From the sequence record NC_052662.1: a stretch of DNA of 64,000 bases; one strand, given 5' to 3'. The DNA comes from Escherichia phage Mt1B1_P17. The position numbers and the translations under genes are program-made. The notes beneath the pieces were generated by a model, which was not told where the DNA came from, did no database searches, and saw only the letters and a program-made list of their open reading frames with translations. The stretch's first letter is position 1; the number at the start of each line of letters is the position of its first letter. Below, in pieces: positions 50,793 to 62,026 of this stretch.

Positions 50793-51587
50793 TTGAGCAA
50801 GTTGAACACACTTGATCAATATTACACTAACCCCGCTTATGCGGGGTTCTTATGTGATAAGATCAAAGAAATTTTTGGAGAGGAAGCTAACTACGTAGAA
50901 CCATCTGCGGGAGAAGGAGCTTTCTCTTCTTGTTTTAAAAACATAACTTCTTTTGATATTGACCCTAAGTTTGAAGATTGTATTGAGGCAGATTTTTTAG
51001 CTCAATCTGTTGAGTCTGTTGGTAGTGTAACTGCTTTTGTCGGTAATCCTCCATTTGGAAAAAATGCTAGTCTTGCCATTAAATTCTTTAACCATTGTGC
51101 TGAAATGCTGGATAACGAAGGTGGTATTTGTTTTATCTTGCCTCGCACATTTCAAAAAATCTTTTTTGCACACAAGCTAAATCCCCATATGCATCTTCTT
51201 TACGAAGAAGAATGTCCAAAAGGATCTTTTATTCTTCATGGAGAACCTTGGGATGTTCCTTGTGTATTCCAGGTATGGATTAAACGCAACGAGAAGCGTT
51301 CTCCCGTTGTTTTAGGAGAGAATCGACTATTCGTATTAGGTAACAGTAAAGACTACGATATAGCCGTTAGGAGAGCGGGAGCAAGTGCAGGTAAAGTGTT
51401 ATCAGAAGAAGATTCTTTATCTGAAGCATCTACCTATTTTTTAAAAGCCTTGACTTCTGATCTTAAAACGCGTATCATTGAGGCTTACCCGTTACTTAAA
51501 GCTGAAGCTAGTAAAACTGCGGGAGTAAGAAGTTTAAGTTTAAAAGAACTTCAGTGGGTTCTGGAGAACATTAGAAAGGAGGAATAG
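50793..51587 (+). CDS. DNA methyltransferase (N6-adenine/N4-cytosine type)
   Basis: SAM-binding motif EPSAGEGAF and catalytic motif GNPPFG; TTG start with RBS AAGGAGGA. Confidence 0.6.
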   Translation: MSKLNTLDQYYTNPAYAGFLCDKIKEIFGEEANYVEPSAGEGAFSSCFKNITSFDIDPKFEDCIEADFLAQSVESVGSVTAFVGNPPFGKNASLAIKFFNHCAEMLDNEGGICFILPRTFQKIFFAHKLNPHMHLLYEEECPKGSFILHGEPWDVPCVFQVWIKRNEKRSPVVLGENRLFVLGNSKDYDIAVRRAGASAGKVLSEEDSLSEASTYFLKALTSDLKTRIIEAYPLLKAEASKTAGVRSLSLKELQWVLENIRKEE

Positions 51588-54184
51588 TGAGTAAGTTTAC
51601 ATGGGATATTGAAGCAAACGGATTGTTGAATAATGACACTATTGATTATTTAGCTAGTCCTTATCGTCTCAAAGACACATTTCAAATGCACTGTATTGTC
51701 TTAGAGAACCATGAAACAGGAGAAATAGTAGCTTTCCACGATGGCCCTAAATACATCTTTGATGGGCGTCCTTATGAAGAGTCAGATGGTAAATACACAT
51801 ATGTTCTTAAAGAGTATGTGGCGCAAGATTACACACATTTTCAACTAAAAGATTTCCCAGATTTTATTAATCATGAAGGTTATTTTAAAGACAAGCCTGA
51901 ATATCTGGTTGAAATGGCTGTGGCTCACAACGGTATCAACTACGACTGGTTGGCTACAAAACTGTTTTATGGATTAGATTACAGTGTTAAATATAATACG
52001 TGGGGCAAAAATAAGGTAAAACTTATTGACTCCTTGATTTTGAGTAAAGTGTTAAACCCAGATCGAAAGATTGAGGGCAAATCAGGACATAGCTTGGCAG
52101 CACTTTCTCGAAAAGCAGGTGGTGATGTAAAAATAGATTTCCGTAAAGAGATTCCAGAAGAAGATCGATTTAAGACTTTTGCTGCGGATATGCTTTATTA
52201 CTGTATCTATGACAACAAAGCCAATACGAGCGTATATAATTACCTTATGGAAGAATGGGGTGATTATGATAAATGGGAAGGTCCATTTGAACTTGAACAA
52301 CGTGTAGCAGACATTATTACACGCCAGGAACACCGTGGGTTTGCTTTTAACATGAAACAAGCAGAAGAGAACCTTGCTTTTTTGGATGCAGAAATGGAGC
52401 GTCTTCGTTTACTCGTTGAGCCTATTTTGCCACCTAAACCAGCAACAAAAGGTTATCTTAAGGCTTTTATTCCACCTAAGTTGCAAATTAAAAAGAACTT
52501 AGAGCCAACTAACCATATGATCAATTTTGCTAAGAAACATGATGGTCATTTGGAAGAGAGGGATGGCGATTGGTGGTTAGTTATGTTGGGGAAAGAGTGG
52601 AAACTGCCAGTTGCAGCAGATGAGCCTCTATGTGATCCTAACATTCCTGCAACATTGAACGATACAACCCATATTAAAAACTGGCTTGTAGGATTAGGTT
52701 GGGTACCGTCTGAATATAAAGATAAAGACTTGACTCTTAAATCTGGCACCAAGATTAAAAAGAGCGAGGAAGAACTTCAGAAAGGTATTCGAGCTTACGT
52801 TGAGCAAACCCTATCTTCTAATTTTTGTCAGGATCGTTGTGATCATCTGGAGTGCACACCGGAAACCCTGGAAAGGAAGATTCAAGAGCGTATAGCAAAA
52901 GGTAAAGGTCGCGGTCTTAAAGTATTGACTAACCCGTGTTTTACCAAAGGTCAGGAAAAAGAAATTTGTCCTAACCTGCAAGCTTTGGGTGAGAAGTTTC
53001 CTTATGCTACACAGATTGTAGAATACTTAACGTATAAGCATCGTAGGAACTCTATTTTAGGTGGCGGTGCTGATTGGGAAGAAGATGAAGAAGATCAAGA
53101 ATACGATAAAGGTTTCTTAGCCGCAGTAAGGGCGGATGGGCGTATTCCTACCCCAGCCGCTACATGTGATGCTGCAACCTCTCGTATGAAGCATAGATCT
53201 GTAGCTAATATTCCTCGTGTCACATCTTTGTTTGGATGGGAGATGCGTAACTTGTTTGGTGTAGAGGTTCCTAAATACTTCCAGATCGGCTACGATTTCG
53301 ACTCTTTGGAAGCAAAAATTGAATCACACTACTGTTGGCGGTACGAGCCGGAGCCACACGAATATTGTAACGCTCTGTTGTTAGAGAAACCTAATGATGT
53401 TCACACAATGATGGCAAAACGTATCACTGAAACTATTGGACGTAAATTTGAACGTAGTCCTGCTAAATCTGTTAAGTATGGTATTACCTATGGTGCACAA
53501 GCCGACAAGGTTGCTAAAACAATTGGTAGCGATAAGTTTACAGGTCAATTGGTGTTTGATGCTTTCTGGGAAGCTGCATTCCCATTGGCGCGTCTTAAAG
53601 AACGTTTAAACGATTTCTGGGTTAAGACTGGTAAACAATATGTTTTGGGTATTGACGGTCGTAAGGTTCCTACTCGTTCTGCTCACGCGATTCTTAACTC
53701 TCTATTCCAAAGCGGCGGGGTTATCTGTGCTAAACGTGCAATGGTTATTTATGACGACATGATCGAAGAAGAAGGGCTAAGTGTTGACTTCTTTAAAGAT
53801 GACTGGAAGAATAAAGACTTCGTGCAACAAATGATCGCATATCACGATGAAGCCCAGCTTGAAGTTTCTCGTAACCTTGTAGAATTTAAATGGTTTTCAC
53901 CTGAATCATTAGGTTGGAAGAAAGTAGACGATCCTGAAGAACAAAAGAAAATTGATAAAGAATGCCTTGCTAAAGTTGAAGAATGGAAGCATAATAAGGA
54001 AAAAGAGACGGGACAAATTTGGGCTAACATTCATGAATCTCCCAAAGGTGGATGGTTTACAGCCTATAGTCGGGCAGGTGAACTCGCTGCTTTAGCTGTT
54101 ACTAAGGCTGGAGAATTTTACAATCTTAATGTTCAGCTTACTGCCGGATATGATGTGGGTAACTCCTGGGCATCCTGTCATTGA
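51587..54184 (+). CDS. family A DNA polymerase, T7 gp5-like, with 3'-5' exonuclease domain
   Basis: Exo I motif WDIEANGLL, DGRKVPTRSAHAILNSLFQSGG and C-terminal ...WASCH recalling T7 DNA polymerase; GTG start. Confidence 0.85.
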   Translation: MSKFTWDIEANGLLNNDTIDYLASPYRLKDTFQMHCIVLENHETGEIVAFHDGPKYIFDGRPYEESDGKYTYVLKEYVAQDYTHFQLKDFPDFINHEGYFKDKPEYLVEMAVAHNGINYDWLATKLFYGLDYSVKYNTWGKNKVKLIDSLILSKVLNPDRKIEGKSGHSLAALSRKAGGDVKIDFRKEIPEEDRFKTFAADMLYYCIYDNKANTSVYNYLMEEWGDYDKWEGPFELEQRVADIITRQEHRGFAFNMKQAEENLAFLDAEMERLRLLVEPILPPKPATKGYLKAFIPPKLQIKKNLEPTNHMINFAKKHDGHLEERDGDWWLVMLGKEWKLPVAADEPLCDPNIPATLNDTTHIKNWLVGLGWVPSEYKDKDLTLKSGTKIKKSEEELQKGIRAYVEQTLSSNFCQDRCDHLECTPETLERKIQERIAKGKGRGLKVLTNPCFTKGQEKEICPNLQALGEKFPYATQIVEYLTYKHRRNSILGGGADWEEDEEDQEYDKGFLAAVRADGRIPTPAATCDAATSRMKHRSVANIPRVTSLFGWEMRNLFGVEVPKYFQIGYDFDSLEAKIESHYCWRYEPEPHEYCNALLLEKPNDVHTMMAKRITETIGRKFERSPAKSVKYGITYGAQADKVAKTIGSDKFTGQLVFDAFWEAAFPLARLKERLNDFWVKTGKQYVLGIDGRKVPTRSAHAILNSLFQSGGVICAKRAMVIYDDMIEEEGLSVDFFKDDWKNKDFVQQMIAYHDEAQLEVSRNLVEFKWFSPESLGWKKVDDPEEQKKIDKECLAKVEEWKHNKEKETGQIWANIHESPKGGWFTAYSRAGELAALAVTKAGEFYNLNVQLTAGYDVGNSWASCH

Positions 54185-55861: not shown

Positions 55862-56794
55862 ATGTCCGTAATTAATACTGAAACTGATCGTAAAGGCAAA
55901 ACCGTAACTTATGCAACTGGTATCGTAGACTACGTTAAACTGGATAAATTCGCTGAACCTAAAACTTTTCATTGGGAAGGAAAAACGATTGTTTCAACTC
56001 ACCGAGCTTCTCTTGTTCTGAAAGAGAAAGGTGCTAAACCAGATGAGAAAGGTGTTTGGATTTCTCTTGGTGACATTGAACTGAAAGAAGGTTATGAAAA
56101 CCTGCAAGTCAAAGAAGGTGATAATTGGATCACTATTGAAAAAGGTGTAGAAGTAAGTATTGATATTGATCGCGTTGATAATAAAGGCGGTAAAACTTAC
56201 TACAATACTAAAAAATCTCGTATTACAGTATTGTCTACCGATGGTGTTCAGAAGTCTAACAAATCTTCTGGCAATAAAGGTTCCAACGATGCTGCTCCTA
56301 AGCAGTCCTATAAAAAACGTGATACCGTAGGCCTGGAAACTGGTCACGCAGTAAATGGTGCACTGGAACTGATTCGTAATGGTGTTAAAGGCGATGCTTT
56401 CGATATCGCTGGGGTTGTTCAATCTGCAACTGTCACACTGAAATCGGAAATTGCTGAATCTCGTGGCGTTGATATTAATGATTATGATCTTGGGGCGTCT
56501 GTTGGTCACGCTATCCTCAATGCTTGTAAAGACCATACCATTAAGACTGTATCTGTAGAAGATTTGATTGACTCTGCTCGTAAAGTTCTAGCTTTGTCTG
56601 ATAAAGTTGCTGCTGCCATTCGTGGTTCCGTAGAACAACCTAAGAAAGAAGAGAAGAAAGAAGTTAAAAAGCCTGAACCACAACCAGAACCAACTCCAAG
56701 TAATCAAGAAGAACCTCCAATGGACTTCGATGATGATATTCCATTTGCCCCTATTGGACTGCAATATGGTCGAAACTTCCTGCATTGCTTCTAA
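55862..56794 (+). CDS. single-stranded DNA-binding protein with E. coli SSB-like acidic tail motif
   Basis: Gly/Ser-rich linker then ...EEPPMDFDDDIPF, followed by 15 further codons before the stop. Confidence 0.5.
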   Translation: MSVINTETDRKGKTVTYATGIVDYVKLDKFAEPKTFHWEGKTIVSTHRASLVLKEKGAKPDEKGVWISLGDIELKEGYENLQVKEGDNWITIEKGVEVSIDIDRVDNKGGKTYYNTKKSRITVLSTDGVQKSNKSSGNKGSNDAAPKQSYKKRDTVGLETGHAVNGALELIRNGVKGDAFDIAGVVQSATVTLKSEIAESRGVDINDYDLGASVGHAILNACKDHTIKTVSVEDLIDSARKVLALSDKVAAAIRGSVEQPKKEEKKEVKKPEPQPEPTPSNQEEPPMDFDDDIPFAPIGLQYGRNFLHCF

Positions 56795-57260
56795 GGTTTG
56801 TTTCAAGTGCGGGGTGTTAAAGCCCCTCACTGAATTTTACAAACATAAAGCTATGGCTGACGGTCACGTCAATAAATGCAAAGAATGTAATAAGAAAGAT
56901 GTTAAACAGAATCGTAAAGATAAATCTGAATATTACAAAGAGTATGATAAAAACAGAGATCAGACCCCAGAGCGCAAAGCTTTAAAAGAGGCTTACGCAA
57001 AAGGGAAAGGTAAAGATAAGGCTAATGAAGCTAAGAAACGTTACATCGAAAAGAATCCGAAAAAACGTTCTGCTCATATAGCTGTAGGTAACGCACTACG
57101 AGATGGAAAGTTAATAAAACAACCTTGCCAAGTGTGTGGGTCTGTTGATGTTCATGCTCATCATTGTGATTATGATAAACCGTTAGATGTTCTATGGCTG
57201 TGTCCTCTGCACCATGAAGCTTGGCATCAAGAACATGGGGAAGGGTTGAACGCTGAATAA
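56766..57260 (+). CDS. HNH homing-endonuclease-like protein
   Basis: N-terminal Cys cluster CFKCG...CKEC and C-terminal HNH motif VHAHHCDYDKPLDVLWLCPLHH; start uncertain (56730 or 56766), overlaps the SSB 3' end. Confidence 0.6.
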   Translation: MVETSCIASKVCFKCGVLKPLTEFYKHKAMADGHVNKCKECNKKDVKQNRKDKSEYYKEYDKNRDQTPERKALKEAYAKGKGKDKANEAKKRYIEKNPKKRSAHIAVGNALRDGKLIKQPCQVCGSVDVHAHHCDYDKPLDVLWLCPLHHEAWHQEHGEGLNAE

Positions 57261-57265
57261 AAGAA

Positions 57266-57290
57266 AGGAGCCAAATGGCTCCTTTTCTTA
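57266..57290. terminator. bidirectional terminator AGGAGCC-AAAT-GGCTCCT between convergent genes
   Basis: Perfect 7-bp stem with T-rich runs on both strands. Confidence 0.6.
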
Positions 57291-59960
57291 TTTATAACCC
57301 GAAGGAATATTGTTATAATCAGAAAGTTTTGTGCAATACCTGAATAGGTAACTATTAGCTACTCCACCTAATGTATTTGTTAATGTTGTTCCTGTTCCTG
57401 TAAGATTTGTGCATCCACTAAAGAAAGAAGATAATGCTCCACGTTTACCACAAACAGTTAACCCTGGGTTGTCATTAAAGATTTTATTAAAATCTGTAAG
57501 TGCTAAACAACCTTGGAATGTAGCTGTTAAAGAGGTCACTTTCGTTGGAATATTATCAAACATTCCTGCTGGAACTTCTGCAAGAGAGGTGCAATCTTTA
57601 AAGGTGTAAGAATATCTTGTAACTTTTGATAGATTCTTAAATAAATCTGAAGGAATAGATGTTAAAGATGTACAACCTTCAAACGTGCTTGACATTGTTG
57701 TCATTGAAGGAAATAAAGTATCACTGAATAATCCTTCAGGGATAGCTGTCAAACTTGTGCAGCCAGAGAAGATACCACTTATAGATGTTCCGGTGTAAGA
57801 TGTGTTACTAAAACAATCAGAAGTTATTCGTCTTAAGTTAGCACAACCTTTTAAGAATTGTGAGGCTGGACTTGTAGAATAACCAATTCTGTTGCCGCCC
57901 CATAATTCTAAAAGATCTGGATTTGCTTCCATAGACACATCAACACTATTCACTACTGAAGCACTTGCAAATTCAATAGCCAGTCTATATTCTCCTGCTG
58001 GATAACTATCCACTGTAGAGAAAGCTTTATTTCTAAATATTACTTTATTTGAAGGTATTACAACGTCATCCACCTTAACTACAAAGTTAGCTGGTGTGAC
58101 AGTACCCGATAAAATTGGGAACGTAATTGCCCCATCTGCCGAGTGGTTGAAATATCCGTTTAGAACCGTTAAACTACTACTCGGAGATGGAGCTAACTCC
58201 TTTCCCGCAACAGCATTCACCGTTAAATAAGAACTATCGGAAGCGGTAACAACACCTTGATACGTAGCTGTGCAACCAATCCTACAACCACCATCACCAA
58301 CACCAGTTATTACACCAGTTGTAGGATCTACTGTAGCAACACTAGGATCTGTAGTTGTATATTCAACAACCATGCCAGGTAAGCTTGCTGCCCCTGTTGG
58401 CGTTATTTCTGCTACCATTGTTTGTGTTGTTCCTACATCCATCGCAGATAAGCTAGGAGTGTAAACGCTCAATGTTGAAGCATATCCTCCAGAGGTATCT
58501 GATAAAGTTGTTCCTTCAGCGTTTAAGGCTGTCATACCTGCATCAAAACCACCTTCTGCATGGAAAGTCATTAAACCAGTAGATGATATTGTCATGTTTG
58601 CAGGGGCAGAAGAAGTGTATTTAATATTGAAAAGTTTACCTCCTTCTGGGCTAACAGAATGTGTCAACTGTTTAGTTCCACCTACAATACAAATTCCTAA
58701 AGAATCTGTAGTTAAGCCAGTTGCCAGAATATCACCCGTAATCACGGAGCTTGCTATTGGTGTGAATTTATTATAGTTTAGACCACTATTGAACAGATAA
58801 GAGGCTTTCCCATCTTTCCAAATACCGGAATAATACATATCTCCATTATAAACGAAAAAGGTTCCTTGATAACCTAATTGGTTAGTAATATCCATATTCA
58901 GCGTATGAACGCTTGTGAGCTTGTTTATATCCCAGGAACCCACTCCTTCAGGTTTAACTGGTTTTCCCACTTGGAGTGGATCTCCGCTCGCAGAATCATA
59001 CCCCAAACCTAAGTTTGCAGTATAGTTCTTACCAATAGCCCACAAGGAATTATTGATCCCAACGAAAAAAGAGTGGCGGCTTGGTGGAAATTTCCATGTT
59101 GAGAAACCTGCTGCAAAGGTATCCAGTTTAGTGTAGGTTGTTTCTGTATTAGACCTGACATATAAGTAGTTTACCGTGCCCGTACCACCGGAGGTATCTC
59201 CTACAACTATTGTCTGGGAAACTGTATTGATGTAATCTTTGACATACACTGTTTCAGTAGTGGATATCGTGGCATTGACAAAAGCGGTTGTTGTGTTATT
59301 ATTACCTGCTAAACCTTTACTGGCTCCACAAACACGCAAGGTTCCCACATTGTTGACATAAGAGCATTGGTTGTAACCTGCATCAAAAGCAATTGCTGCA
59401 CTTGTTATCTGACGAGGAGTAGAAACCTCGTTAGTAGTACTTGCACCTAAACTACCTACTGTGTTTTGACCTGATCCATAAAGAACACCACTATTCATTA
59501 ACCAGAGAGTGTTGTTATATCCTCCCTTAACCTCTTTAAGATTGGCTAAAGAGATAGTCCCTGTTATTACAGATGGAAAGCTGGTCCAAGTAGTTACACA
59601 TGCGTCCGTACCACCTGCTGCTATAGATCCTACCAATCCTGCTGTCAATCCTGAATATTGCCATCCCCCACTGTTAGTTTTAATAACAAAACAACGATCT
59701 GCGGTAAACACATCCGCTACTACAGTAGAAGCTAAGTGGAAATTATTGAATCGTGCACTACGAGTTCCATCTGCAATCTCACCAAAAAGGTTTGCGCCTT
59801 GAGTAAACAATCTACCATCATTAAGCAAAATTGCTAAACTGCTGTTAGAATTACCAGCATTATCTGGGTAATCTAAAGTGATTACTTTTTTAACAATACC
59901 TGCTGGCAGAGGAACGACACCAGTGCTGGTCATAATAGTAAATATTGGAATTGGAAACAT
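57288..59960 (-). CDS. tail fibre / receptor-binding protein with C-terminal leucine-rich-repeat-like (BspA-type) module
   Basis: 890 aa, G/T/S/N-rich; C-terminal repeats of F.GCTSLT.IP..LF about every 25 aa; RBS GGAGGG. Confidence 0.55.
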   Translation of the reverse strand: MFPIPIFTIMTSTGVVPLPAGIVKKVITLDYPDNAGNSNSSLAILLNDGRLFTQGANLFGEIADGTRSARFNNFHLASTVVADVFTADRCFVIKTNSGGWQYSGLTAGLVGSIAAGGTDACVTTWTSFPSVITGTISLANLKEVKGGYNNTLWLMNSGVLYGSGQNTVGSLGASTTNEVSTPRQITSAAIAFDAGYNQCSYVNNVGTLRVCGASKGLAGNNNTTTAFVNATISTTETVYVKDYINTVSQTIVVGDTSGGTGTVNYLYVRSNTETTYTKLDTFAAGFSTWKFPPSRHSFFVGINNSLWAIGKNYTANLGLGYDSASGDPLQVGKPVKPEGVGSWDINKLTSVHTLNMDITNQLGYQGTFFVYNGDMYYSGIWKDGKASYLFNSGLNYNKFTPIASSVITGDILATGLTTDSLGICIVGGTKQLTHSVSPEGGKLFNIKYTSSAPANMTISSTGLMTFHAEGGFDAGMTALNAEGTTLSDTSGGYASTLSVYTPSLSAMDVGTTQTMVAEITPTGAASLPGMVVEYTTTDPSVATVDPTTGVITGVGDGGCRIGCTATYQGVVTASDSSYLTVNAVAGKELAPSPSSSLTVLNGYFNHSADGAITFPILSGTVTPANFVVKVDDVVIPSNKVIFRNKAFSTVDSYPAGEYRLAIEFASASVVNSVDVSMEANPDLLELWGGNRIGYSTSPASQFLKGCANLRRITSDCFSNTSYTGTSISGIFSGCTSLTAIPEGLFSDTLFPSMTTMSSTFEGCTSLTSIPSDLFKNLSKVTRYSYTFKDCTSLAEVPAGMFDNIPTKVTSLTATFQGCLALTDFNKIFNDNPGLTVCGKRGALSSFFSGCTNLTGTGTTLTNTLGGVANSYLFRYCTKLSDYNNIPSGYK

Positions 59961-59970
59961 TTAAACCCTC

Positions 59971-59998
59971 CATAAAAAGAAAGCCCCTTTCGGGGCTT
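59971..59998 (-). terminator. intrinsic terminator AAGCCCC-GAAA-GGGGCTT plus T-tract
   Basis: Hairpin downstream of collagen-like fibre gene stop on the minus strand. Confidence 0.6.
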
Positions 59999-60001
59999 CT
60001 G

Positions 60002-62026
60002 TTATCGTGTTACAACAACCATGTCCACGATATCACCCACACCAGGATACGTTAATTGCAAAATTGTTACTGCGTTAGCAGTAGTTGCTATTTCTGTATC
60101 ATTTAGTGCTCCATAAGACGCATCTAGTGTAACCGTGTGTCCCGTTGTATCTTGAATCAAATAAATCATTGCTGAAAACGCTTTAGGTTTTGTAGAGCCA
60201 GTGACACCAGGCCATGCTCCAACTGTCAGAGCGTCAGTTACTGTAACAACATACATATTGGAAGTTCCAGAAGGAGTCCAAGATGCTCCAGAGTTGGCAG
60301 TAGTTGTTTCAAGTTCCATGAAACCTGCTGTAACTTTAGTTGGTGTTATAGCTTCCGTAGGATCTGATCCTGATATTTCGATCCAGTTTCCATCAGAACG
60401 ACCATACGTCAAGCCGTCTTGAGGGGCTTCTGGTATACTAGGAAGAGTTCCTATAAGCGTCCACGTAGAAGAATCTGTTTTCTTAAACACTGCTCCAGTG
60501 GTAGTATTGAAGGCGTAATCATTGATAACACCGTCTCCTGCGACTGGATTAGTTGTTGCTACAAACCACTGTGCGCCGTCCTTACCGTTGGTCCCATCAG
60601 TACCGTTGGTTCCGTTTGTTCCAGGATCACCCTTATCTCCTTTATCCCCTTTTTCACCTTTGTCGCCTTTAATACTTCCCATGTCAACAAAAGATGCGGA
60701 ATTGGTGTCTTGATCGTAGGTATAGATGTAAAGATTACTAGTGTCTTCAGTTAAGTAAGCATCACCATAGTTATTGTAAACAGGGAGAGCTTCACTGTTC
60801 GGAACATGACCTTTAGCTGTAATTGATGTTCCTCCAAGACTGCCAACATTCATCCATTCCGTAGCATCTTGGACCCAAACATACAAATCATTATTAATTT
60901 TATATGCATCACCTACTTCTCCAGTCGGAGGAAGTTCAGCTTCGCTGTTCAGAACCCCGATAATCTCTAAGCCTGATCCTGTTGCACCAACTGGTCCTTG
61001 TGGACCTAATTCACCTTGTGGACCTTGCTCTCCTTGATCACCCTTGTCTCCTTTTGGACCTTTAAGCGAGGCAATGAAATCTACTTCTGTCCCTTCATTA
61101 CCAGCATCCAGCCAACTTTGATATGCAGATTTCCCTTCATCTCCATCTGTTCCATCTAGACCGTCTTTACCTGCCTCACCTTGTGGACCTTGAGGACCAA
61201 CAATATTACCCATGTTGACCCAAGCTGTCCCATTGGAGACATAAAGATTACCATTGATAGAATAAGCTTGGCTTACGTTTTCAGAGTTAGGTTGTGGTAA
61301 GTTACTTGTAGAAGGCAAATCCCCACGATAATCAAAACCGTTGGCGTTAACACCAGGTGCTCCCTGTGGCCCTGTAGGACCAACATCGCCTTTATCACCT
61401 TTTATAGAGGTAAGAAAATCATAAACAGATCCTGTATTACCATCTGCCAACCATACCTCGTAAGCTGATTTACCTTCTGGCCCAAGAGAAGAAATAAGTT
61501 TCCAAACAGAACCATCCCAAGCGTAGATTACATCACCTACGATATAACCATCCCCTGCAACGTTACCTGTAGATGGTAGTTCACTAGTGCTTGCTAATGA
61601 TCCTTTAATATTAAGTTGAGCACCAGTGTCCCCTTTCAAAGAAGCAAGCCATTGTGCTTCTGTTCCAACAAAACCATTATCAAGTGCGATCTGATAAGCC
61701 GATTTACCAGCTTCAGGTATTGTTTCCGACAGATCATCAATCTGTTGCTGCATTGCCGTAAACTTGGCATTGATAATTGCTATATCATCGGCGGTCCCAA
61801 CACTTTGCCATGCAAGGGAAGAAATACCACCTGTGGTGGCTGGCGTAGAGTTTGCTGGAACTACTTTAGGAAAAGTTCCTTTCCATTGGTAATAATTCCC
61901 TTCTGCTGCTAACAGCAAAACTTCACGGGAATTACGTAATGTAAAACCTGCCTCAAAGCTGCGACGTTTTCGATAAGTAGCTTCTACCAGATCGGCTATC
62001 GCACTATTAGGTCTTGTTAAATTCAT
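60002..62026 (-). CDS. collagen-like tail fibre protein
   Basis: Multiple Gly-X-Y tracts (GPQGPQGEAGKDGLDGTDG, KGPKGDKGDQGEQGPQGELGPQGPVG, KGDKGEKGDKGDKGDPG); RBS AGGAGAG. Confidence 0.6.
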   Translation of the reverse strand: MNLTRPNSAIADLVEATYRKRRSFEAGFTLRNSREVLLLAAEGNYYQWKGTFPKVVPANSTPATTGGISSLAWQSVGTADDIAIINAKFTAMQQQIDDLSETIPEAGKSAYQIALDNGFVGTEAQWLASLKGDTGAQLNIKGSLASTSELPSTGNVAGDGYIVGDVIYAWDGSVWKLISSLGPEGKSAYEVWLADGNTGSVYDFLTSIKGDKGDVGPTGPQGAPGVNANGFDYRGDLPSTSNLPQPNSENVSQAYSINGNLYVSNGTAWVNMGNIVGPQGPQGEAGKDGLDGTDGDEGKSAYQSWLDAGNEGTEVDFIASLKGPKGDKGDQGEQGPQGELGPQGPVGATGSGLEIIGVLNSEAELPPTGEVGDAYKINNDLYVWVQDATEWMNVGSLGGTSITAKGHVPNSEALPVYNNYGDAYLTEDTSNLYIYTYDQDTNSASFVDMGSIKGDKGEKGDKGDKGDPGTNGTNGTDGTNGKDGAQWFVATTNPVAGDGVINDYAFNTTTGAVFKKTDSSTWTLIGTLPSIPEAPQDGLTYGRSDGNWIEISGSDPTEAITPTKVTAGFMELETTTANSGASWTPSGTSNMYVVTVTDALTVGAWPGVTGSTKPKAFSAMIYLIQDTTGHTVTLDASYGALNDTEIATTANAVTILQLTYPGVGDIVDMVVVTR

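Follow-up and report, generated by a model that had tools for sequence, protein, structure and literature searches.

The 64,000-nucleotide stretch of Escherichia phage Mt1B1_P17 analysed here (NC_052662.1; hereafter the window) belongs, judging by its similarity to sequenced relatives, to a Phapecoctavirus, i.e. a phAPEC8-like E. coli myophage of the Stephanstirmvirinae. Its gene for the tail protein TfpM1 (57288..59960, minus strand; an open reading frame (ORF) of 2,673 nucleotides with a product of 890 residues) ends in seven cysteine-centred repeats with a predicted leucine-rich-repeat (LRR) fold, and these repeats are part of a C-terminal cassette that is replaced by other tips in related phages. 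The protein was named in a published study but is uncharacterised (PMC12695924). We lean, with modest confidence, towards TfpM1 being a modular adhesin with an accessory role in the tail-fibre apparatus of Phapecoctavirus, which would be attached to the virion and carry the LRR cassette as its distal ligand-binding module.

Repeats and predicted fold of the TfpM1 tip

The repeat core [FLIVM]-x-[GDYK]-C-[ATL]-[SNAK]-L, searched as a regular expression, occurs seven times in TfpM1 (starting at residues 703, 731, 760, 787, 815, 847 and 873, with the cysteines at 706, 734, 763, 790, 818, 850 and 876), while shuffling the C-terminal 250 residues 20,000 times yielded on average 0.004 copies and at most two. 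A first-pass annotation made from the DNA letters had proposed at least six repeats near the C-terminus of this 890-residue protein at a spacing of about 25 residues; the number of repeats is thus confirmed, but the spacing is wider (28, 29, 27, 28, 32 and 26 residues, with a mean of about 28). Likewise, the full pattern F-x-G-C-T-S-L-T-x-I-P-x-x-L-F that it described applies to repeats 2-4 only, repeats 1 and 5-7 being degenerate, and the core shared by the repeats is [A/T]-F-x-x-C-x-x-L. Of the 16 cysteines in TfpM1, nine fall within its last 185 residues, one in each repeat plus two extras. On the basis of the repeat search, the shuffles and homology, the putative ligand-binding tip comprises residues 696-890 (57291..57875, minus strand), consisting of the seven-repeat cysteine ladder and a conserved C-terminal cap (...C-T-K-L-S-D-Y-x-x-I-P-x-x-Y/W-K). 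The interval originally assigned to the repeats, 57288-58040, covers this region and in addition takes in about 55 residues of the preceding β-sandwich.

Sequence comparison and structure prediction identify residues 696-890 as a solenoid of LRR type resembling the bacterial BspA/DUF285 repeats. When the last 300 residues of TfpM1 were searched against the PDB with phmmer, all matches down to E 0.08 were LRR proteins, headed by the designed LRR protein OR464 (E 2.9e-7), LRRTM (7.4e-6) and then many variable lymphocyte receptors (VLRs), and the two exceptions both lay at E >0.1. A search of a set of 5.8 billion proteins (E<=1e-3) returned 185 homologues, mostly metagenomic proteins of 270-430 residues, many of which carry precomputed LRR_5 or DUF285 assignments and one of which bears the name 'leucine-rich repeat protein [Caudoviricetes sp.]'. 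Among the 104 homologues that were aligned, 46 matched LRR_5 (best 1.4e-32) and 32 matched DUF285 (best 1.3e-72), counted at E<=1e-3 for LRR_5, and the profile built from the homologues retrieved LRRTM (1.9e-23) and the BspA-like structures 4fs7 (2e-20) and 4gt6 (7e-20) from the PDB. A MAFFT alignment of repeat proteins (A1) is ragged, with 1607 columns, and the AlphaFold2 (AF2) model derived from it is nonetheless confident. The tip combines the tandem ladder repeats of 20-30 residues and the similarity to known LRR proteins that characterize the LRR superfamily (Pfam clan CL0022), and it is predicted to form a curved solenoid with one repeat per turn, in which the last three repeats are partly helical. 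The resemblance to BspA-type LRRs that had been suspected at first sight is therefore upheld by both the PDB search and the homologue profile, with TfpM1 by itself remaining below the LRR_5 and DUF285 thresholds, and a canonical fibre tip lacking a solenoid was not what the prediction returned.

As to the class of these repeats, the signature [A/T]-F-x-x-C-x-x-L is BspA/TpLRR-like, while a repeat length of some 27 residues and the register V-T...F-x-x-C are closer to DUF285/PARCEL. Repeats of the TpLRR class are about 23 residues long. Compared with the BspA/TpLRR proteins (LRR_5, PF13306; 4fs7, 4gt6, 4fdw, 4h09), the TfpM1 repeats are longer (26-32 residues), number only seven, of which the last three are degenerate and partly helical, score 19-20 bits against the required 27.7, and terminate a phage tail protein instead of a bacterial surface protein. 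With DUF285/PARCEL (PF03382; TIGR02167) TfpM1 shares the period (about 26-28 residues) and the register C-x-S-L-x-x-[IL]...V-T-x-x-x-x-x-F-x-x-C, and true DUF285 tips are found at the same position in orthologous fibre proteins of related phages of about 150 kb. However, the DUF285 core W-[DN]-[VT]-S-N-V-T is missing from TfpM1, which has I-P-x-x-L-F in its place. In an hhalign comparison the cysteine-LRR tip of TfpM1 aligned with the canonical DUF285 tips of the orthologues with 82% probability (E 1.1e-5).

Exchange of the C-terminal cassette

In the full-length AF2 model (mean predicted local distance difference test score (pLDDT) 87.4; predicted template modelling score (pTM) 0.57, as expected for domains arranged like beads on a string) the LRR tip is preceded by three kinds of domain. 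The protein begins with a short peptide (residues 1-20) and an RCC1-like β-propeller (residues ~20-400; together 58761..59960, minus strand), which was recognized by Pfam (WD40_RLD/RCC1) and modelled with β-strand blades at a pLDDT of about 90, the first 10 residues having a pLDDT of 54. Residues M1, P3, P5, G14 and P17 are near-invariant across 43 homologues with identities down to 27%, and over residues 1-185 TfpM1 shares about 41% identity with the N-terminal end of the 'lateral tail fiber protein with intimin domain' of the rV5 type, the gene of which likewise ends its fibre locus. Because of this homology to a lateral tail fibre the N-terminus of TfpM1 is the putative virion-attachment end. 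Two Ig-like Big_2 domains follow as a spacer (residues 401-585, 58206..58760, minus strand; Pfam Big_2 E 2.6e-9 in two stretches, β-sandwiches in the AF2 model) and end at the breakpoint SSYL(T/A)VNAV, which was located by tblastn and windowed identity. The first half of the C-terminal cassette is a small β-sandwich (residues 586-695, 57876..58205, minus strand; AF2 strands at 598-686) that is PKD-like by motif; homologues carry the PKD-like signature H-x-Y-x-x-x-G upstream of the LRR, and matches in BFVD are named 'PKD domain-containing protein'.

Comparison among phages indicates that residues ~585-890 of TfpM1 are a swappable cassette, one of several interchangeable tips. A tblastn survey of 50,697 phage records with the 890-residue protein gave full-length matches in 32 records, while about 30 further Phapecoctavirus records, including phAPEC8_ev052, ZCKP1, ECO340P1, DIJ07P1 and TSP7_1, matched residues 1-584 only (at about 97% identity), so that roughly half of the related phages have the alternative, GTA-head-spike-fibre-like domain in this place. 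In a three-way alignment the windowed identity dropped from 0.9-1.0 to about 0.15-0.2 right past SSYL(T/A)VNAV at residue ~584. The alternative cassette of 307 residues (phAPEC8_ev052, locus L003 4750-5676; phiWec181, locus L004) is recognized with 76 bits (cutoff 36; E 3.8e-21) by the NCBIfam model NF048003, 'phage head spike fiber domain'; this domain (GTA_spike_fiber) belongs to the head-spike fibre of RcGTA, which binds capsular polysaccharide (PMC10218006). In remoter orthologues with 42-57% N-terminal identity, the protein carries a PKD-like domain plus canonical DUF285 repeats, a GTA-like tip or another unrelated tip, or stops at residue ~565-573 and lacks a cassette; precomputed PF03382 assignments were present in the orthologues P0138, P0141-143, P0146 and P0159. 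Moreover, the LRR tips of phiWec188 and phiWec190 are 91% identical to that of the window and the GTA-like tip of phiWec181 is about 94% identical to that of phAPEC8_ev052, yet the N-terminal parts of these three phiWec proteins are no more than 76-81% identical to the window. The cassettes thus move across lineages, with recombination at a constant position that follows the second Big_2 domain. TfpM1 accordingly has the conserved N-terminus and variable C-terminal tip by which receptor-binding proteins are recognized, and since a conserved N-terminus with a recombining C-terminus is the classic signature of such proteins, this pattern provides the chief argument for a ligand-binding function of the LRR tip.

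Several observations bear on the same proteins. The NF048003 match ties the tip of a coliphage tail protein to the head-spike fibre with which the Rhodobacter gene transfer agent binds capsule. A natural fusion of 396 residues (P0001; locus L005 8001-9191 of the Logan contig SRR10359460_34) arose from an in-frame deletion of 3,548 nucleotides that joins the first 73 residues of the neighbouring fibre protein (60002..62026), i.e. its Tail_spike_N anchor, to TfpM1 residues ~567-890, so that the β-sandwich and LRR cassette sits on a different anchor. The junction lies at a microhomology of about 11 nucleotides, CAA(A/G)GTGTTG, with the corresponding window breakpoints at ~61791 and ~58259, and since the synteny is otherwise intact, P0001 is likely a true deletion variant and not a misassembly. 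In addition, a protein of 573 residues on a 60-kb Logan contig (P0144), with 95% identity over 45% of the N-terminal query and an intact LRR C-terminus, may represent a second internal-deletion form of the TfpM1 gene.

The first-pass annotation had called an LRR tip unusual for a phage fibre, which is correct for cultured phages, in which tblastn with the LRR tip found matches in 61 of the 50,697 records, 34 of them in the present phage group, but less so for uncultured phage assemblies, in which proteins with LRR or BspA names are common, one of them in a crAss-like tail module. The matches in other cultured phages, at about 30-37% identity, came from Klebsiella P2-like Reipivirus, from Erwinia, Serratia and Klebsiella jumbo phages, from Listeria and Butyrivibrio phages, and, in the same identity range, from a 'putative tail protein' of Synechococcus phage S-CBWM1 and gp353 of Bacillus phage G. 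The P2-type baseplate 'tail protein I' (gpI; 1008 residues) of the Reipivirus Klebsiella phage ST16-OXA48phi5.4 (locus L002 2523-5549) showed 7-8 tblastn matches to the LRR tip; here an array of LRRs lengthens a baseplate protein. Matches in BFVD were named 'BspA family leucine-rich repeat surface protein', 'Leucine-rich repeat protein', 'Internalin-like protein' and 'Bacterial surface protein 26-residue repeat', and originated from Caudoviricetes metagenome-assembled genomes and crAss-like phages. One homologue from a crAss-like contig (P0025; ERZ16268206 scaffold_79, locus L007 3410-4219) is encoded directly after a gene for a 1074-residue Phage_tail_C protein, with the crAss ring and muzzle genes downstream, and shares with TfpM1 the C-terminal cap ...Y-x-x-I-P-x-x-W-K; translation of its locus does not reproduce the protein, possibly due to stop-codon recoding in that phage. 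Another (P0007) is encoded on a phage-like contig of 88 kb, where a DUF4376 gene follows two genes downstream. A scan of IMG/VR with a further alignment (A3) produced 67 pattern matches, none of which was confirmed. A 2026 preprint on phage Goslar describes predicted LRR/β-helix domains in host-recognition (DUF7941) proteins, while literature searches found no experimentally characterised phage LRR receptor-binding protein; a CASP16 paper retrieved there is irrelevant, as it concerns LRRK2 and T5 pb1.

TfpM1 resembles known modular receptor-binding proteins, such as the 'Swiss-army-knife' lateral fibres of rV5 and phi92 and the tailspike protein (TSP) complexes of the Ackermannviridae, in its location in the same gene block, its N-terminal homology to the rV5 lateral tail fibre protein, its sharp recombination junction and the presence of several tip types. 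In contrast to these proteins, TfpM1 has no predicted trimeric β-helix, coiled coil or intramolecular chaperone, and its tip is an LRR instead of a glycanase or lectin. The LRR/BspA proteins of uncultured phages are stand-alone proteins of 270-430 residues or use other anchors, whereas in TfpM1 the tip continues a stalk of RCC1 and Big_2 domains within one polypeptide. In comparison with those proteins and the Goslar proteins, TfpM1 comes from a culturable, genetically tractable coliphage in which a natural non-LRR allele serves as a control.

Ligand and role of the LRR cassette

LRRs are known to bind glycans as well as proteins, with VLRs as an example of glycan binding, while many LRR proteins, e.g. 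internalins, bind proteins. Binding of the cassette to the host surface is probable, with a glycan being no less likely a ligand than a protein. The idea that the LRR tip recognises a specific host protein, such as an outer-membrane protein, the flagellum or an adhesin, in line with the proposal of the first-pass annotation that the phage uses a protein rather than a carbohydrate receptor, draws on the protein ligands of internalins and many other LRR proteins but is at odds with the glycan ligands of other LRRs such as VLRs, and we consider it unlikely. The resistant host mutants that had been suggested as a way to identify the receptor have in effect already been published for phages with the LRR allele. 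Phage 536_P1 possesses an orthologue 99.4% identical to TfpM1, and in 57 clones of E. coli 536 resistant to this phage the mutations affected lipopolysaccharide (LPS) genes (77%) and capsule genes (18%), while mdtC, pqiA and a surface-adhesin homologue (ECP_0298, in one clone) were hit only alongside LPS or capsule mutations (PMC11495123). The single adhesin-mutated clone would favour a protein receptor, but membrane-protein mutations never occurred alone. The LRR-allele phages phiWec188 and phiWec190 lost infectivity on a waaG mutant, a waaT/manB double mutant and a yhaH mutant, and phiWec179, 181 and 186, which carry the GTA-like allele, require waaT and flhD (PMC12548472). This difference in the non-LPS requirement of 'Wecvirus' phages with the LRR and the alternative allele, yhaH versus flhD, could likewise be taken to indicate a protein receptor. 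However, YhaH is an inner-membrane protein for which a contact with the fibre tip is unlikely, the flagellar dependence accompanies the non-LRR allele, and the correlation between allele and phenotype is confounded, because TfpL, a second fibre protein, differs between the two Wec groups as well (PMC12695924). A protein in preference to a carbohydrate receptor is therefore unsupported, since the resistance to 536_P1 maps to LPS and capsule and LRRs bind both types of ligand. In the ST410 paper, receptors for Phapecoctavirus are given as hypotheses only.

Both alleles occur in phages from one host, as in ECO340P1 and ECO340P2 on S. flexneri DA340 and in the pair DIJ07P1/DIJ07P2, and phi92-like phages are without the TfpM1 gene altogether (PMC12695924). 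For these two reasons the tip more probably serves as an accessory adhesin that modulates the host range than as the essential receptor binder. In such an adhesin the N-terminal peptide and the propeller would dock TfpM1 onto the fibre or baseplate complex and the Big_2 domains would space the tip outward, while the β-sandwich and LRR cassette would contact a cell-surface component reversibly via the repeat surface and thereby modulate the host range. A buried cysteine ladder may stabilise the solenoid by analogy with LRR_5, and recombination at the junction at residue ~584, for which the exchange is seen at the sequence level, would swap the specificity.

BspA-type adhesins of bacteria bind eukaryotic matrix proteins. 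The TfpM1 tip might accordingly adhere the virion to its environment, e.g. gut mucus or host glycoproteins, and not to the bacterium, comparable to what was proposed for Ig-like capsid decorations. The combination of Big_2 domains with a BspA-like LRR indeed resembles bacterial surface adhesins, an enrichment of homologous tips is seen in metagenomic phages from the gut, crAss-like ones among them, and the gene appears dispensable, as it is missing from phi92-like phages. Nevertheless, we give this possibility little credence, as the gene resides inside the tail-fibre block, the N-terminus is common to a lateral tail fibre protein, the alternative cassette belongs to a bacterial-capsule-binding domain type, and the pattern of the alleles follows differences in bacterial host genetics. 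Equally doubtful is a function of the LRR as a protein-protein module within the virion, which would dock TfpM1 to fibre or baseplate parts or recruit a partner. LRRs are generic protein-interaction scaffolds, and the Klebsiella P2-like phage has LRR repeats fused to its baseplate gpI; moreover, rV5-like and phi92-like phages assemble branched multi-fibre complexes (PMC8594841). Assembly interfaces are normally conserved, though, whereas the LRR is variable, replaceable and sometimes absent, with the conservation residing in the N-terminus, and the P0001 fusion carries the LRR cassette on a different N-terminal anchor.

Some results weigh against TfpM1 being an LRR-tipped adhesin of the virion. 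Its scores stay below the thresholds of LRR_5 (PF13306; 19.1 bits for the 250-residue fragment, 20.4 for the 195-residue tip and 11.8 for the whole protein against 27.7), DUF285 (PF03382; 16.1-17.1 against 25 bits) and the PARCEL repeat (TIGR02167; 17.4 against 30 bits), and Foldseek matches of the model in the PDB were weak (E 1.8e-2, TM 0.13-0.25). Because TfpM1 falls under every curated LRR threshold, 'BspA-type' denotes a resemblance and not a proven membership. These sub-threshold hidden Markov model scores and weak Foldseek matches are also what could be adduced for the view that the repeats are a product of chance or low complexity and that the C-terminus forms an ordinary fibre tip of β-sandwich or β-helix type, a view that the evidence on repeats and fold has effectively refuted and that now seems extremely improbable. 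Furthermore, neither Pfam nor the monomer AF2 model of TfpM1 revealed a coiled coil, triple β-helix or chaperone domain as found in trimeric fibres and tailspikes. Since none of its domains has a trimeric fibre or tailspike fold, 'fibre' is a positional and not a structural label for TfpM1, which is predicted to be a chain of monomer-type globular domains. Literature searches retrieved no virion proteomics or electron microscopy evidence for TfpM1 in particles, and the resistant-mutant studies of the LRR-allele phages (536_P1; phiWec188/190) point to no tip-specific surface ligand. Finally, a terminator-like GC hairpin with a T-run (59980..59999, minus strand; terminator scan) in the gap of 41 nucleotides between the upstream fibre gene and the TfpM1 start may render the expression of TfpM1 low or separate, or attenuate it relative to the preceding fibre gene.

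The LRR fold, the presence of TfpM1 in public databases and BspA- or LRR-labelled phage proteins in metagenome annotations were known already. What is new is the recognition of a sub-threshold LRR in the tail protein of a cultured coliphage and its placement within a delimited set of exchangeable cassettes that includes natural non-LRR alleles. The rV5-, phi92- and phAPEC8-like phages are candidates for therapy owing to their broad host range, and the roles of their individual fibre genes are openly described as unresolved (PMC8594841; PMC12695924). The TfpM1 tip, of which one lectin-like and at least two LRR-clan versions exist, constitutes a natural allele series in culturable coliphages (ECO340P1 versus ECO340P2; phiWec181 versus phiWec188), which makes the function of an LRR on a phage particle testable. 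This question also bears on the many proteins, unannotated or automatically annotated as 'BspA family', that crAss-like and other phages of the gut encode. It is conceivable, if rather improbable, that the LRR cassette is a monomeric, repeat-encoded tip that sets the choice of the secondary receptor in Phapecoctavirus and 'Wecvirus', and that LRR and lectin-like alleles explain the yhaH-type and flagella-type dependence, respectively. If so, it would be the first functionally defined phage LRR receptor-binding domain, and it would provide a designable repeat surface, like those of VLRs and repebodies, for phage retargeting, with the same logic applying to the LRR tips of crAss-like and gut phages.

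Gene neighbourhood and related genomes

The TfpM1 gene shares 95-98.6% nucleotide identity with its counterparts in about 30 sequenced phAPEC8-like myophages (EF1-1, tuntematon, ESCO5, 536P1), with 98.6% in Escherichia phage EF1-1 and similar values in tuntematon and ESCO5. In these relatives the product is labelled solely 'tail protein' or 'hypothetical protein', and the PHROG family phrog_11922 'tail protein' matches it end to end (1343 bits). The coding sequence (57288..59960, as defined by the ORF list, PHROG, nucleotide identity and synteny with tuntematon, where gp128 is the counterpart) closes the baseplate and tail-fibre block. It is preceded on the same strand by baseplate, short fibre, colanidase-like spike and collagen-repeat fibre genes and is thus encoded inside the tail and baseplate morphogenesis module. 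Its upstream neighbour is a tail fibre gene encoding 674 residues (60002..62026, minus strand; Pfam Tail_spike_N E 1.3e-19, Collagen E 4e-12).

At its 3' end TfpM1 faces a convergent ORF of 176 codons (56730-57260, plus strand), in the product of which cysteine and histidine motifs typical of an HNH homing endonuclease were read by eye. A perfect hairpin found on both strands by the terminator scan (57263..57286) lies between the two stop codons as a bidirectional terminator. The HNH-like ORF is probably a mobile endonuclease insertion, because it is absent from tuntematon, in which the flanking genes are just 57 nucleotides apart. A further length difference concerns the DNA polymerase, which has 1110 residues in a Logan Phapecoctavirus contig (locus L005 11814-15146) compared to 865 residues in the window (51587-54184), suggesting an intein or endonuclease insertion in one of the two. 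In addition, near-identical Phapecoctavirus genomes are filed as 'Campylobacter phage B15', 'Pseudomonas phage PsgM04F' and one Acinetobacter-named record; such hosts seem unlikely for a genus of coliphages, and contamination or carry-over may explain the labels.

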